Shown: piece by piece, positions 2,911 to 8,328 of the stretch
Layout: each line of letters starts with the position of its first letter
Numbering within the stretch: the first letter of the stretch is position 1
DNA from: a virus
Lineage: Duplodnaviria > Caudoviricetes
Virus record (IMG/VR): IMGVR_UViG_3300033513_000001
Coordinates: 1-64,000 of that record
DNA: 64,000 bases
Reading direction: 5' to 3' (one strand)
The notes under the pieces: model-generated
Told to the model about the DNA's origin: nothing
Seen by the model: only the letters and a program-made list of their open reading frames with translations
Database searches by the model: none
Program-made: the position numbers and the translations under genes

Positions 2911-3405
2911 ATGCCGAACCCACACCCCACTGATGGAACCGCAAATCTAAAAGACTTCCAAGAGGGCGAGGACAAACGCCGCACCCTCAAAGGACGCAAA
3001 CCGCGTTACGAAATCGCCAAAATCATTGAGGAACGCGGAGCGCGTCTAAAGGACGATGACCCCGAAGGGCGTACTATCGCGGAAGCCGCTGTTGACGCTA
3101 TGTGGGAAAAGGCCCAAGTGGGCGATGGCACGGCGGTCAAGGCATTTGCAGAGTTAGCCAAGTATGGTTGGGGTACGCCAGAAGTCAAGGACGTTCGGCA
3201 AGTCCTGTTGATGATTGTGGCTGGCGCTCAACAAAGGGGCTTGAATCCAAGCGATGACCCAGTTCTCGGAGCAATCTTCGCCGCAGCAGATTATAGAGTT
3301 CCTAAGCTCGCTTCGCCCAGACCAAATGAGCGAGATAGTTCAAGCGAGATTCAAGCAACTCGATCAGGCGAAACAGACATCGTGGACGCCGAAGCAGTTT
3401 CCTGA
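2911..3405 (+). CDS. terS: Terminase small subunit (probable)
   Basis: Directly upstream of TerL. N-terminal 'F.EG...GRKP' and 'A.GD..A.K.(L)...G' patterns typical of DUF5681-like small terminases. Confidence 0.65.
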   Translation: MPNPHPTDGTANLKDFQEGEDKRRTLKGRKPRYEIAKIIEERGARLKDDDPEGRTIAEAAVDAMWEKAQVGDGTAVKAFAELAKYGWGTPEVKDVRQVLLMIVAGAQQRGLNPSDDPVLGAIFAAADYRVPKLASPRPNERDSSSEIQATRSGETDIVDAEAVS

Positions 3406-4879
3406 CAACTCTGTCGTAACAGAGGAAGGGGAAATTCTGCCGTTCAATCCCGCTCAGAAGGCAACCTATGAGGCTGACACACGCATGGTTGCTCTTATCT
3501 CAGGCCCGCAACTTGGCAAGACCTGCCTGTCACCGATTTGGATGTGGCGCGAGATTCAGCGGCTTGGCAGAGGGACATATCTTGCTGTGTCCAACGACAT
3601 GGATATGTTCAAGCTCAAGATGTTGCCTGTTTACATCCGATTGTTTGTTGAGCATCTTGATGTGGCCCGCTATTGGGCATCCGACAAGCTCCTAGAGATT
3701 CGCAATCCCCACACAGGCGAATTTGAAGCCCAACACTCTCAAGACAAGATGTATGCCCGCATCATCCTGCGTTCTGCTGATGACAAGGGCGGCATGGAAT
3801 CGTCCACCGCTCAGGCTGTTCACATGGACGAGGCGGGGCAAGAAAACTATGACCTAGAACTGTGGAAGGCGACTAGGCGCAGGATTGCCGTCAAGCGCGG
3901 CAGAGTCCTCATCACAACCACTCTCTATGGCCTTTCCGCTTGGTTGCAAAACACAATCATCAACCCTGCGGAACTTGGCGGGGAGCAACAGCTTTTTTCC
4001 TTTGAGAAGGGCGAGATGATTATTACTCGCAATGAGGCTTCGGGTATTACTCTCGTTCAGGCTGACTCCACCCTCAACCCAAGTTTCGAGGTTGAAGAGT
4101 TTGAGGAAAACCGCGCCTCAATGCCTGATGATGAATTTCAGATGATGTATCGTGGCCGCGTGACTACTCCCCGCGACCTCATCTACGATTGCTTCGGCCT
4201 CAAGAATCTGTGTGGTCGCTTTGACCCGCCTCCTCACTGGCAAAGGGTCTGGGGCATTGACTTTGGCGGCGTCAATCTGGCGTGCGTCAAGATGGCGCGT
4301 AACCCCGAAACGGGCGTCTATTACCTCTATGGCGAGTATCACGCGGGCGGAAGGTCTGCGTTGGAGCACGTCGCAGAGTTGATGCGGGGCGAGAGCAACC
4401 GTAGTGTCATGTGCTTCGGCGGGGCACGAGCCGAGGAAAGTTGGCGCAACGAGTTCGCTGCCGCTGGCTTGGTCGTCATCAAGCCGCCGTTTGATGACCT
4501 GTGGCTTGGCATCCAGCGGGTCTACGCGCTGTTGAAAAAGGGCGAGTTGGTGATTTTCAATGACTTGCCTGGAACCCTCAAGCAGTTGAAAGGCTATCGG
4601 CGCAAGAGGGACAGGTCAACGGGAGAGAGTTTGATGGAAGTCGAGAAGAAGGCGACGGCGCACTACTTGGACAGCCTTCGTTATGTCACAGTCGGAATGT
4701 CGGAAGTGGCAAGCCCAGACTCTTGGTTGTCTTCGGAAATGAAGGCTCTCGGACTCATCAAGGAGAGCGAGGAAAACAAGCCGCCCGTTCCATCCAATGC
4801 AGAGTTATTTGCAAGACTACAGTCTGGGAAATTAGGTGTTGACAATATTTCAGGTAGGGCTTATAATATTCTCAAGTGA
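3254..4879 (+). CDS. terL: Terminase large subunit
   Basis: Walker A GPQLGKT, Walker B VHMDEAG, coupling motif LITTT, RuvC-like GIDFGG and C-terminal HYLDSLRY. The start could be 3254 or 3326. Confidence 0.9.
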   Translation: MTQFSEQSSPQQIIEFLSSLRPDQMSEIVQARFKQLDQAKQTSWTPKQFPDNSVVTEEGEILPFNPAQKATYEADTRMVALISGPQLGKTCLSPIWMWREIQRLGRGTYLAVSNDMDMFKLKMLPVYIRLFVEHLDVARYWASDKLLEIRNPHTGEFEAQHSQDKMYARIILRSADDKGGMESSTAQAVHMDEAGQENYDLELWKATRRRIAVKRGRVLITTTLYGLSAWLQNTIINPAELGGEQQLFSFEKGEMIITRNEASGITLVQADSTLNPSFEVEEFEENRASMPDDEFQMMYRGRVTTPRDLIYDCFGLKNLCGRFDPPPHWQRVWGIDFGGVNLACVKMARNPETGVYYLYGEYHAGGRSALEHVAELMRGESNRSVMCFGGARAEESWRNEFAAAGLVVIKPPFDDLWLGIQRVYALLKKGELVIFNDLPGTLKQLKGYRRKRDRSTGESLMEVEKKATAHYLDSLRYVTVGMSEVASPDSWLSSEMKALGLIKESEENKPPVPSNAELFARLQSGKLGVDNISGRAYNILK

Positions 4880-4890
4880 CATTTGTCACT
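4839..4890 (+). promoter_or_regulatory. Perfect consensus promoter followed by a palindromic operator
   Basis: TTGACA(4839-4844)-N17-TATAAT(4862-4867) inside the 3' end of terL, then AGTGACATTTGTCACT at 4875-4890. Confidence 0.8.
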
Positions 4891-5095
4891 TGACAGGAAG
4901 GGGGCGAAGTGGACATTTCGGACACCGCGTTGTTGTCGGAGCAATTTTTCTCCAGATTGCCTAAGCAATACAACTGGCGTCCCAAGCCCGACATCACCGT
5001 CTATGAATTGGCGTTAGCCGTTCCCGTCCTGTTGCTTCGGCTCTATGACATAGAGACGGCGGTCAAGAGCCTTCCAGAATCGGTACAGCGCCACT

Positions 5096-5353
5096 TTGAG
5101 GAAGCTGTCTAGGAGGTCAATCGTGAGTTTCTTGGAATTTCTCAAGTTCTTCTTCTCGGACGCCTCGCGTGTAACTGCCTTCGTCGGTCTGCTGGTCAAC
5201 ATCGCTATTTGGGTAGGCGCTCGGTACTTCCCCAACCTTCCCGTTGACATCATCAAGGCCATTGGCGCATTCGTTGAGATGGCGCTGATTGCGTGGGCAG
5301 GCTATAGTTCTGGCGTGAAGGTTGAGCGGGCGAGGTCATTGAGAGTCAAGTGA
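5096..5353 (+). CDS. Small two-TM membrane protein (holin-like)
   Basis: Two hydrophobic segments and a basic C-terminus in 85 aa. Confidence 0.5.
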   Translation: MRKLSRRSIVSFLEFLKFFFSDASRVTAFVGLLVNIAIWVGARYFPNLPVDIIKAIGAFVEMALIAWAGYSSGVKVERARSLRVK

Positions 5354-5375
5354 CACGGCCCGTTTCGTTTTTTGT

Positions 5376-5450
5376 GGCGCGGCCCGGTCTGGCAGGGCAG
5401 GGCTTTGTCAGGCAGTGCAAGGCATGGTCGGGCGAGGCATGGCAAGGAAC
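5376..5450 (+). repeat. Pentamer array A: 15 phased xGY-NN units (putative guide ncRNA)
   Basis: ggcgc ggccc ggtct ggcag ggcag ggctt tgtca ggcag tgcaa ggcat ggtcg ggcga ggcat ggcaa ggaac; intergenic. Confidence 0.85.
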
Positions 5451-5472
5451 ACTTTTTCAGTAGGGGGCAAAG

Positions 5473-5646
5473 TTGAACGAAAGAGAGTTCCTAGTAGAAT
5501 TTAGGCAAATCGTTCTGCATCTTGCGGACTTGATTGAACGCAAGTTAGATATGCGTCCGAGAACATCGGAACTCAGGCGCGAATGGAAAGAGCGCCATAA
5601 AAAGGAAAGCCAAGATGGACTTCAGCAAGTGCAGAACGGACAATGA
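5473..5646 (+). CDS. 57-aa hypothetical protein (not in the ORF track)
   Basis: GGGGGCAAAG RBS-like element then TTG; reads LNEREFLVEFRQIVLHLADLIERKLDMRP...NGQ-stop and overlaps the next start. Confidence 0.55.
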   Translation: MNEREFLVEFRQIVLHLADLIERKLDMRPRTSELRREWKERHKKESQDGLQQVQNGQ

Positions 5647-6013
5647 GTGGTGGGAACTTTACAACAGGTATCTTCAAACTAATGAGTGGCGACAGAGGCG
5701 AGAAGAAAGACTCGCCATTGATGGGCGCAAGTGTGTTGTGTGTTCAAGTGGCGAGGATTTGGAAACGCATCATCGCCACTACAAAACGGTTGGAAACGAG
5801 AATGCCTTGACTGACTTGGTGACTTTGTGCAAAAGACACCATGAGGCAATCACAAATTCTGACCGAGAGAATCGTTACCAACGGCGAAAGCCGATTCTTG
5901 TAGACGTTGTGTCTACGTTCACCCGAAAGGAGTCTAGTCATGTCGTACCAGAGTTTGTCGTTCAAGATTGTCGGCGTTGCACCCCTCATTATGCACAATG
6001 GGCAGACGGCTGA
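5615..6013 (+). CDS. HNH endonuclease (paralogue 1)
   Basis: CVVC...ETHHRHY..VGNE...DLVTLCKRHH: zinc-binding HNH signature. Confidence 0.85.
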   Translation: MDFSKCRTDNEWWELYNRYLQTNEWRQRREERLAIDGRKCVVCSSGEDLETHHRHYKTVGNENALTDLVTLCKRHHEAITNSDRENRYQRRKPILVDVVSTFTRKESSHVVPEFVVQDCRRCTPHYAQWADG

Positions 6014-6512
6014 CCCACTCAACCATTTCGCAAAAGAGATGAAGAAAATCACCTCTAAGCGAATGAAAACCGATGCTGACTTAGAGCAACTTGCAAAGAT
6101 TGAGTGGTATGCGTCCCTGTACACTAACAACGGAAAACCATGTATTCCGTCTGAGGTGATTGAGTCCTGTTTCACCGAGGCGGCAAAAAAGACCAAGAGC
6201 GGCAAGAAAGCTCTTATCGGCTTCTATTGTCCGGCGCACTCGGAGCTTATCTATGATGGCCCAAGTGACCCAGAGGAAATGTGGAAAAGTGACAAATTCC
6301 GCTTCACCACTGCGGTCAGGCTGAACGGTAGAACAAAGGTCATGCGAACGCGATGTCGCTTTGAGCAGTGGGGCGCGACCATCGCTGTGATGTTTGACCC
6401 TAGCACATTCAATGAGCCAGAAATCTTTGACATTCTGAAAACGGCAGGCGAGGTCATTGGCCTGTGTGATTGGAGGCCGAAGTTCGGAAGGTTTCAGGTT
6501 TCAATTGAATAG
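5940..6512 (+). CDS. Standalone RAMP/Cas7-like RNA-binding protein (Vipr-like)
   Basis: AAGGAG RBS and ATG 5940. N-terminal beta-strand 'FKIVGVAPLIMHN', 'CIPSEVIESCFTEAAK' helix and C-terminal Gly-rich loop 'AGEVIGLCDWRPKFGRFQV', matching the RAMP pattern. Flanked by pentamer arrays. Confidence 0.75.
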   Translation: MSYQSLSFKIVGVAPLIMHNGQTADPLNHFAKEMKKITSKRMKTDADLEQLAKIEWYASLYTNNGKPCIPSEVIESCFTEAAKKTKSGKKALIGFYCPAHSELIYDGPSDPEEMWKSDKFRFTTAVRLNGRTKVMRTRCRFEQWGATIAVMFDPSTFNEPEIFDILKTAGEVIGLCDWRPKFGRFQVSIE

Positions 6513-6520
6513 AATCGCGG

Positions 6521-6595
6521 GGCGAGGCGCGGCGCTGTCGGGATAGGCATGGTCGGGCAGGGCGTGGCTTGGTGGGGTGAGGTAGGGCGTGGATT
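6521..6595 (+). repeat. Pentamer array B: 15 phased xGY-NN units
   Basis: ggcga ggcgc ggcgc tgtcg ggata ggcat ggtcg ggcag ggcgt ggctt ggtgg ggtga ggtag ggcgt ggatt; begins 9 nt after the RAMP-like stop codon. Confidence 0.85.
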
Positions 6596-6622
6596 AGGAA
6601 TCATTCTTGATTCACTCAATTT

Positions 6623-6772
6623 GGTTTGGCGGTGCTAGGCTGGGCATGGTGCGGCAAGGTGTTGCTGAGTCTGGCAGGGTTGGGTTGGGCGCAGTTGCGT
6701 GCGGTCTGGCGAGGCGTGGCGCAGCGAGGCGTGGTCAGGGTTGGCAAGGCGGGGTCAGGCATGGCATGGGTT
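6623..6772 (+). repeat. Pentamer array C: 30 phased xGY-NN units
   Basis: Unbroken 5-nt register from ggttt(6623) to gggtt(6768-6772); G at position 2 in all 30 units. Separated from array B by a 27-nt AT-rich linker. Confidence 0.85.
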
Positions 6773-6795
6773 TACTCAAGTTGAACAGTAGGACG

Positions 6796-7104
6796 ATGAT
6801 TGTTACTCGCCAGTTTCTAAATAGCCTTCTGCGGGGCGCGACGTTTGACTTTTCCAAATGTCGCACGAACGACGAGTGGTGGCGGCTCTATCGGCTCTAC
6901 CTGCAAAGCCCGCAGTGGCGAAGGAAGCGGGAGGCGCGGCTCATTCTTGACAGACATCGGTGCGTGAAGTGCAACGCGATGAGGCGGCTGGAAGTCCATC
7001 ACTTGAGTTACCGCAACGTTGGGAACGAGCCGATGGATGACTTGCGGACGCTGTGCAAGGACTGTCACGACGGAGTGACGGAGAAAAGTAGGGGGCATAA
7101 GTGA
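6796..7104 (+). CDS. HNH endonuclease (paralogue 2)
   Basis: DFSKCRTNDEWW...CVKC...EVHHLSY.NVGNE..DDLRTLCKDCH. Likely start is ATG 6796; the longer ORF-track N-terminus is just array C translated. Confidence 0.85.
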   Translation: MIVTRQFLNSLLRGATFDFSKCRTNDEWWRLYRLYLQSPQWRRKREARLILDRHRCVKCNAMRRLEVHHLSYRNVGNEPMDDLRTLCKDCHDGVTEKSRGHK

Positions 7105-7491
7105 CACCAGAACAAGAATACCGTGAGGCGCTAATCCGCATCTCTACATTGATTCCATTGCTTGAGGACACCTTGCACGATATGGAGCACAACCCACTTG
7201 TCAAGTTGTCCTATGCGATTGTGGCAAAAATGGGATTAGCGATTCCAGATTCTATCTATTCGCTAGGGTGCAAGTCGAATGACCAAGTGTGACTACTGCC
7301 AATCACGCAACGATGACAAGCAAGAATTGTGTAGGCATTGCGGTGCGCCGTTGCCTCTGGTCATTCCGCGAGTTGACGACAACTTTGAGCGCAACAGCGG
7401 GAAGTTGTATTTAGCGCCAGAGTCAACATGGATAGCGTCAACGTGTAGCACTAGACCGTCCGCCACATCATTCGCCATTTACTTGACTTAG
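7101..7491 (+). CDS. Two small hypothetical genes (7101-7292; 7279-7491 zinc ribbon)
   Basis: Overlapping chain; CDYC...CRHCGAPL in the second. Confidence 0.5.
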
Positions 7492-7497
7492 GGGGCA

Positions 7498-8328
7498 TTG
7501 GGATTGTTTTCTCTCAGGAGTTTCTTTCCCGATGTTTCAATCCGAATCTGTGACATCGGCGCATCGCCCCATGAGGGCAACCTGATACCCTACGGCAAAC
7601 TGGTTGAGGACGGCGTTGCAACCGTCATCGGCTTCGAGCCGTTGCCAGAGGAATGCCGCAAGTTCAATGAGGCCAACCCGAAACTCAAGTGCCTGCCCTA
7701 CGCCGTTGGCGACGGGAAAGAGGCAACGCTCCACAAGTTCTTCGCGCCAGGGATGGCAAGTCTTTTACAACCGAATAGGGAACTTCTGTCCTACTTCGTC
7801 GGCTTTGATGACTGGCTTGAGCCAAGAGGCGAGGCGCGAGTCCAGACACATCGTTTAGATGACCTAGAAGAAGTCGGCGCGGTGGACTACTTGAAACTGG
7901 ACACTCAGGGAAGCGAGTTGACCATCCTGCAAAACGCCGAGAAGGTCTTGCGCGATGTCCTGATTATCCACACCGAAGTCCAGTTCTTGCCGATGTACTT
8001 GGGCCAACCGCTGTTCGGTGACATTGACTCGTTCCTGCGGAGCGCGGGATTTGTCCTGCACGTCTTTGGGATGAAGAATTTTAGGTTTGTCGCCTTGCCC
8101 GATGCTCTATCGAGGCACGCGGCTGAGGCCGATGCGGTTTACGTCAAGGACTTTACCAAATGGGACGCGATGCAGATTGAGAGCCTGAAAAAGACGGCGC
8201 TGGTCTTGCACGACTTGTACAGTTCCTACGCGCTGACGACTCTGGCGCTCAAGTGCATTGACGACAAAATCAACACCAAGTTCCGACAGAGGTATATTGC
8301 GCTTTTGGAGAAGGGGGCAAAGAGGTGA
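7498..8328 (+). CDS. FkbM-family SAM methyltransferase
   Basis: ICDIGAS, VIGFEP, RLDDL..V..VDYLKLDTQGSELTIL, IHTEV motifs. Confidence 0.85.
   Translation: MGLFSLRSFFPDVSIRICDIGASPHEGNLIPYGKLVEDGVATVIGFEPLPEECRKFNEANPKLKCLPYAVGDGKEATLHKFFAPGMASLLQPNRELLSYFVGFDDWLEPRGEARVQTHRLDDLEEVGAVDYLKLDTQGSELTILQNAEKVLRDVLIIHTEVQFLPMYLGQPLFGDIDSFLRSAGFVLHVFGMKNFRFVALPDALSRHAAEADAVYVKDFTKWDAMQIESLKKTALVLHDLYSSYALTTLALKCIDDKINTKFRQRYIALLEKGAKR

Follow-up and report, generated by a model that had tools for sequence, protein, structure and literature searches.

A predicted HNH nuclease partner of Vipr and its stand-alone paralogue in a putative phage VIPR locus

VIPR is a phage-borne, CRISPR-like RNA-guided system described in a 2026 preprint (bioRxiv 10.64898/2026.04.26.720920), with structures given in 10.64898/2026.04.26.720927. 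At its heart is a minimal RAMP protein, Vipr, which forms polymers on vrRNAs composed of YNNGG repeats; each repeat reads DNA with its two variable letters and skips one base. Accessory 'vap' genes make up the rest of the systems. VIPR has been described only in 2026; of its forms only the silencing one (type II) has been tested, and the nuclease-bearing forms are predictions. Here we report on a locus of this kind in IMG/VR virus record IMGVR_UViG_3300033513_000001, a viral contig of 89,430 bp whose first 64 kb form the stretch that we analysed, hereafter the window; scans of the whole record cover all 89,430 bp. The locus carries a vipr gene, tracts of phased pentamers and two paralogous HNH genes, HNH1 directly upstream of vipr and HNH2 after the last tract (Table 1). 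We consider it probable that this is a phage VIPR system with vipr and four guide tracts, one upstream and three downstream, that HNH1 is its Vap nuclease, and that HNH2 is a non-standard offshoot linked to the system through its upstream guide, guide A.

The closest described relatives are VIPR systems with a nuclease Vap. Our locus resembles them in its Vipr homologue, in its same-strand YNNGG tracts and in the small HNH gene next to vipr; HNH-bearing VIPRs are mentioned there, so this kind of system is already known. The nuclease-Vap systems are most likely those called 'type III', and the type of our locus is itself uncertain. It differs from them in carrying an extra, tail-less HNH paralogue. 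Type II VIPR, as found in Escherichia phage SUSP1 and a Pseudomonas fulva prophage, shares with our locus a homologous Vipr and the arrangement of one guide upstream and three downstream. In type II, however, vap1, a predicted DNA binder, lies downstream of vipr and the system acts by silencing, whereas our locus has no vap1 and has an HNH gene upstream. Outside VIPR, a parallel is offered by Cas5-HNH of the type I-E HNH Cascade (PDB 8yb6, 8zp7; PMC11794572), in which an HNH domain serves a RAMP-based RNA-guided DNA-binding complex, as we infer for HNH1. There the HNH domain is fused to the Cas5 RAMP protein within a multi-subunit Cascade that uses a contiguous guide, whereas HNH1 is a separate protein of 132 amino acids whose gene overlaps vipr. 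Small size and an HNH zinc-finger core are also shared with the free-standing homing endonucleases of phages and with packaging HNHs (HK97 gp74; GVE2 HNHE, 5h0m), but HNH1 is fixed to vipr rather than to terminase genes.

A sequence-only reading of the window had called the region a RAMP/pentamer locus; our comparisons indicate that this locus is a VIPR system and that the predicted product of 5940-6512 is Vipr. In a profile search the 190-amino-acid protein matched PDB 36pp, 'SUSP1 Vipr protein', over its full length (E 2.6e-47), and it matched phrog_4652 with an E value of 2e-51. Its AlphaFold model (predicted local distance difference test score, pLDDT, of 91) has Csm3/Cas7 proteins as its best Foldseek matches (E 7e-6). 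VIPR tracts are expected to have some 9-16 units or more and to flank vipr on its own strand, and those of our locus have 15, 15 and 30 units. They fit the YNNGG pattern well: of 60 units, 58 have Y at the first position and 51 have GG. Elsewhere in the 64-kb window no phased GG tract turns up on either strand; the three present all lie on the + strand, which is also the strand of vipr. Same-strand tracts also lie beside vipr homologues in Pseudomonas phages LESphi2 and Medea1 and in Mycobacterium phage LittleE. Of 38 IMG/VR loci almost all show the same association, as do many of the 80 loci that come from bacterial genomes. An Rfam scan of 4800-7600 returned no matching family. Vipr should polymerise on the vrRNAs here.

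The sequence-only reading had proposed co-occurrence with the RAMP/pentamer locus as a test, and the outcome is strongly positive. In 25 of the 38 viral loci and about 65 of the 80 bacterial-genome loci, the gene immediately before vipr on its strand encodes an HNH protein; the two genes frequently overlap, by 0 to ~160 nt across loci. All but three of the HNH-less loci form a single clade of the Vipr tree, and the remainder of the tree is HNH-positive (81/84). The Vipr of the window is placed within this HNH-positive part. The HNH-less clade, to which the Viprs of LESphi2, Medea1 and LittleE belong, is type II-like and has a vap1-like gene downstream. This distribution, which agrees with the 'vap' nucleases predicted in the preprint, points to HNH1 as the predicted Vap nuclease of the system, inherited with Vipr across a whole clade of Viprs; the locus would then be a clear phage-borne example of an HNH inherited together with Vipr. 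Two of the three exceptions on the tree are uninformative, one because of a contig end and the other because of masked N. At the latter (L076:420-690, a contig of an alphaproteobacterial metagenome-assembled genome) a masked run of N stands just upstream of vipr, at the place expected for the HNH gene, so that HNH is only apparently absent there. A natural fusion to Vipr considered for this locus was rejected, the long frame being an artefact of the masked run.

The sites at which the HNH-vipr cassette resides in other phages vary: it is found between baseplate hub and tape measure genes, between portal and capsid genes, and before a DNA polymerase gene. HNH1 relatives are thus flanked by phage structural and replication genes in varied contexts, and we did not find the conserved terminase or portal adjacency that is a trait of packaging HNHs. 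The varied neighbours make a packaging role unlikely and favour a self-contained accessory cassette. In Azospirillum, Methylobacterium, Bradyrhizobium and relatives (L052-L056, L058, L064, L070 and others), HNH-vipr is followed by one array of ~13 units, compared with the multi-guide phage versions. Such bacterial-genome relatives, with HNH-vipr and one short array, fit the single-vrRNA systems mentioned in the preprint; judging from its figure legends, it is the HNH type that would have a single guide.

HNH1 consists of a core (residues 1-90, with pLDDT >90) and a tail (residues 91-132) modelled at low confidence. As the sequence-only reading had correctly noted, the last 74 nt of the gene overlap vipr, where the tail is encoded in the -1 frame relative to vipr. 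Among the top 34 HNH relatives aligned, drawn from 1.8 billion representatives searched, about 22 end in xAQ[WR], and this motif is the -1-frame reading of the invariant MHNGQ of Vipr (5973-6013 in the window; the C-termini of P0002-P0049). The motif therefore marks an overlapping vipr, and it could serve as a protein-only marker in databases that carry no genomic context. Both xAQ[WR] proteins whose contigs were fetched, P0002 and P0006, have vipr as the next gene, and the P0002 contig has an array after vipr too. Conservation of the tail is explained by the overlapping, highly conserved Vipr N-terminus, which forces it. The codon that keeps the frame open, His CAC, is present in 15/18 loci without HNH and in 48/50 loci with HNH. 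We considered a selected, functional HNH1 tail and rejected it as unproven, given that the motif is the Vipr N-terminus read in the -1 frame and that codon use is the same in HNH-less loci.

Among solved structures, Cas5-HNH stands nearest to the HNH core both in sequence (E 1.2e-11 with the family profile and 3.5e-4 with HNH1 alone) and in fold, and IscB comes next. Residues 21-81 of HNH1 superpose on residues 279-338 of PDB 8yb6 chain A with a root-mean-square deviation of 1.7 Å over 63 columns and 30% identity. From this likeness, a single HNH lineage may be at work in two guide systems built on RAMP proteins, VIPR and the HNH Cascade. As a side reading, the same lineage may shift from one state to another: free-standing, linked to VIPR or fused to Cas5.

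The two HNH proteins are paralogues of about half identity, as had been estimated by eye: BLASTP of both open reading frames (ORFs) gives 43/87 identities (49%, E 2e-29), and HNH2 does lie downstream of array C, as had also been read from the sequence. The whole record holds these two copies and no further one. The HNH core (HH...N...H) is present in both, with zinc ligands of the form CxxC...CxxH in HNH1 and CxxC...CxxC in HNH2. Pfam HNH (PF01844) scores 17-21 bits for the two proteins, slightly below its gathering cut-off of 21.4, and PHROG HNH families match both (E 1e-10 to 1e-11). Their N-terminus had been called unusual, which holds for DFSKC(R/K)T, a rare element; the remainder, Y..YL.S.EW..KR...L..D, is shared by an HNH family of great size (29,476 representatives at E<=1e-3). 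Word searches for near-homologues returned nothing for HNH1 and only its own record for HNH2. Pattern searches for HNH relatives found, among viral contigs, one degenerate locus (L006, an HNH-less remnant with the N-terminal motif) and, among metagenome contigs, none. PADLOC and NCBIfam gave only generic HNH-domain echoes (DpdF, ZorE, IscB) far under the family cut-offs. A tree built on the short HNH domain is mostly unresolved and supports only HNH2 and P0001, described below, as sisters near HNH1.

HNH2 has no C-terminal tail and ends exactly where the tail of HNH1 begins. Its sole close relative, P0001 (107 amino acids), aligns with it without gaps at 57% identity (E 3e-45). Because HNH2 read from TTG 6781 is also 107 amino acids long and gives this gap-free alignment, we take TTG 6781 as the probable start; the source gene call uses ATG 6766 (112 amino acids). 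P0001, a singleton, comes from a contig of only 597 nt. It shares the truncated end of HNH2; the gene downstream of it is unrelated, and the 38 nt preceding its start contain no pentamer tract. Recurrence of the short end in a different context implies that the short form is an old, stable lineage. Two more distant tail-less members of the family, P0003 and P0024, come from densely packed gene neighbourhoods in which, as far as their short contigs extend, no vipr follows. All four genes, HNH2 and those of P0001, P0003 and P0024, stand singly among unrelated neighbours, as free-standing phage HNH genes do. At the ~120 other vipr loci no second HNH is present within 5-6 kb, which implies that one HNH is enough for the system. 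HNH2 is best described as a predicted stand-alone offshoot of the VIPR-linked HNH clade, with an intact predicted catalytic core, and it does not appear to be a standard part of VIPR. The proposal in the sequence-only reading that both proteins are dedicated nucleases of the guide complex thus survives for HNH1, which co-occurs with vipr, and fails for HNH2. From the 38 nt upstream of P0001 we also considered that the cassette had inserted with a CCCGTTTCG element on one side and HNH2 on the other; the 10-mer in common is no more than chance would give, and this scenario was dropped.

We next consider the guides. Tract C may be one guide of 30 units or two abutting 15-unit guides, C1 (6620-6694) and C2 (6695-6769). 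At units 15/16 there is no tail between the two halves, only weakened units (CGCAG, TTGCG), and guides reaching 30 repeats are mentioned in 10.64898/2026.04.26.720927. We scored four guides (A, B, C1 and C2) by the 1-nt-skip rule and took at least 80% of the NN letters as the criterion for a natural target. Guide A has a unique best match in the genome (Table 1), with 11/12 letters matching in its first six units. The match covers codons 2-16 of HNH2, counted from ATG 6796, and lies 30 nt beyond the cassette; by count of the codon register, the skipped bases fall on codon position 3 (wobble). With shuffled guides, summed over all four, 0.24 matches of at least 21 letters are found per genome, and ~0.002 would be expected in the 700 nt abutting the cassette, a figure calculated post hoc. 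When the shuffles were limited to the flanks, a score of 21 was reached in 2/200 trials. On the P0001 contig, the best site of guide A again falls in the homologous codons (19/30). A match of C1 at 661-704 (20/30) is out of wobble phase in the codon register of ORF 520-828 and was treated as chance.

The guide A match suggests, as a lead and not a result, that guide A targets rival alleles of HNH2 in sibling phages. The extra paralogue would then belong, as it appears to, to a gene family at which one of the guides is aimed, and the relation could serve either sibling exclusion or RNA-guided homing of the cassette. Searches for supporting targets gave the following. Under 0-, 1- and 2-nt skip rules, no guide match stood above shuffles genome-wide in the own genome, which is in line with the VIPR preprint, where no self-targeting was found. 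In 1.1 Mb of related loci no guide matched at 24/30 or better, and exact patterns of 10-11 units (five against viral contigs, one against metagenome contigs) returned nothing. These same 1.1 Mb, viral and metagenome scans held no HNH2 allele that guide A matches better. No sibling phage emerged from a terminase-based IMG/VR search or from DNA similarity to deposited phages.

Under the reading that we favour, the Vipr-vrRNA filament would bind DNA by the code of two letters read and one skipped. We infer that HNH1 is recruited to the filament after DNA binding and that, through HNH1, the bound DNA of rival phages or satellites is then cut. The homology, the co-occurrence, the folds and the guide match are what the data show directly; filament binding by HNH1, cleavage and the role of HNH2 go beyond them. 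HNH2 comes directly after the guide array and is probably co-transcribed with it. The most likely link between HNH2 and the system is that HNH2 represents the resident, mismatch-protected allele of a gene that guide A attacks in sibling phages, while its own activity would be that of a free-standing HNH nuclease. If true, a guide RNA together with a nuclease would here offer a concrete example of homing, or of sibling exclusion, between phages.

Several points weigh against this reading. According to the preprint, the nuclease types are enriched in host defence islands, whereas our locus lies in a phage contig with a terminase gene on one side and methyltransferase and tail genes on the other. 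Single-vrRNA systems are listed there among the architectures, whereas our locus has four guide tracts (15, 15 and 30 units, the last counted as C1 and C2). Vaps are nucleases only by prediction in 10.64898/2026.04.26.720920 and 10.64898/2026.04.26.720927. Since the His CAC codon is equally common with and without HNH, the HNH1 tail gives no evidence of a Vipr-binding motif. The match between guide A and HNH2 reaches only 70% and was noticed post hoc, and 4% of shuffled versions of guide A attain the same score somewhere in the genome. Finally, none of the four guides had a target at the 80% criterion in the own genome, in the ~1.1 Mb of fetched loci or in the exact-pattern viral and metagenome scans.

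It is tempting to speculate that the cassette spreads by RNA-guided homing with a recoded resident target, although we regard this variant as doubtful. The sequence-only reading had already raised homing nucleases that spread the cassette, an idea to which the guide A match at the start of HNH2 lends indirect support. Led by guide A, the Vipr filament and HNH1 would reach the opening codons of HNH2-type genes in cassette-less siblings, and repair from a cassette-bearing genome would copy the whole VIPR cassette in. The cut site would then lie only tens of bases from the insertion point, and the phage's own HNH2 allele would escape through its nine mismatches.

An explanation in which both HNHs are effectors of one Vipr-vrRNA complex, for instance with each nicking one strand to give a double-strand break, seems to us improbable. 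HNH1, HNH2 and the guides do lie in one apparent transcription unit, with no terminator-like site between array C and HNH2 (the only terminator-like match in the scanned region is weak and lies inside vipr). Catalytic residues are kept in both proteins, and, apart from P0001, each is the closest relative of the other. The lack of a second HNH at the other vipr loci speaks against it, however, as do the HNH2 relatives that have no vipr after them on their short contigs.

We give similarly little credence to HNH2 as the remnant of a second, tandem cassette (array C, HNH2 and a lost vipr2), in which loss of vipr truncated the overlapping HNH2 tail. The coincidence of the HNH2 end with the start of the HNH1 tail would fit such a history, cassettes normally carry an array just before the HNH gene (array A here; also in L012, a compact related locus), and 10.64898/2026.10.15.759431 documents vipr-vap deletions after which solo guides remain. 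However, no remnant of vipr is found downstream of HNH2, and P0001 has the same short end elsewhere with no array before its start. In addition, one upstream and three downstream guides are already the canonical layout of a single cassette (10.64898/2026.04.26.720920).

That both HNHs are ordinary free-standing homing endonucleases parked beside a guide system is very unlikely. HNH genes are common mobile passengers at the borders of phage modules (PMC10448857), and HNH2-type genes do occur without vipr; yet the linkage of HNH1 to vipr is clade-wide, in fixed order and often overlapping, which independent mobility would not give. Least credible of all is the suggestion that both are terminase cofactors for DNA packaging, similar to HK97 gp74: the large terminase gene ends only 0.7-2 kb upstream of them and the GVE2 packaging HNH is a weak profile match (E 2.4e-4), but a consensus promoter and two small ORFs stand between that gene and the HNHs, the HNH-vipr pair elsewhere adjoins baseplate, tape-measure, portal, capsid or DNA-polymerase genes, and the nearest solved relative is Cas5-HNH and no packaging HNH.

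Table 1. Features of the putative VIPR locus and its surroundings (positions in the window)
Feature	Position	Strand	Remarks
Sigma-70-type promoter, TTGACA-17-TATAAT	4839-4867	+	12/12 consensus match
Recurrent phage palindrome, GTGACATTTGTCAC	4876-4889	+	Directly after the promoter
vrRNA A, upstream guide, 15 YNNGG units	5373-5447	+	Phased GG tract; short 3' tail to ~5472
Weak promoter-like site before HNH1-vipr	5473-5500	+	Coincides with the TTG start of a 57-amino-acid ORF
HNH1, 132 amino acids	5615-6013	+	Predicted Vap HNH nuclease; core residues 1-90, low-confidence tail 91-132
vipr, 190 amino acids, Cas7-like RAMP protein	5940-6512	+	ATG 5940 preceded by AGGAG
vrRNA B, 15 YNNGG units	6518-6592	+	Phased GG tract; tail to ~6619
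vrRNA C, 30 YNNGG units	6620-6769	+	Phased GG tract; no internal tail
HNH2, 107 amino acids from TTG 6781	6781-7104	+	Alternative starts ATG 6766 and ATG 6796
Best 1-nt-skip match of guide A in the genome	6799-6842	-	21/30 specified letters

The cassette lies on the + strand between the large terminase gene (3254-4879, phrog_2) and an FkbM-type methyltransferase gene (7498-8328). Along this strand the order is promoter, palindrome, two small ORFs, tract A, HNH1, vipr, tracts B and C, and HNH2. The consensus promoter is located at the very end of the terminase gene; together with the palindrome it likely forms the start of a transcription unit running into the cassette, and the VIPR cassette seems to sit in its own regulated unit within the structural region. 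The 57-amino-acid ORF before HNH1 (5473-5646) has no family match and no counterpart in L012, the one compact related locus inspected. On the other side of the cassette, the 3' tail of tract C extends into the start of HNH2. The stop of HNH2 overlaps the GTG start (7101) of the next gene (overlap 7101-7104) and further overlaps follow downstream, so that HNH2 is predicted to be the first gene of a tightly coupled downstream operon.

Far from the cassette, at 52291-52390 and 53457-53830, the window contains tandem repeats with a period of 18/36 in which two unit types, CGTGTAACCCA and GTGCGAGCCA, alternate, with ~9 copies of 36 bp. These are putative iteron-like or binding-site arrays.

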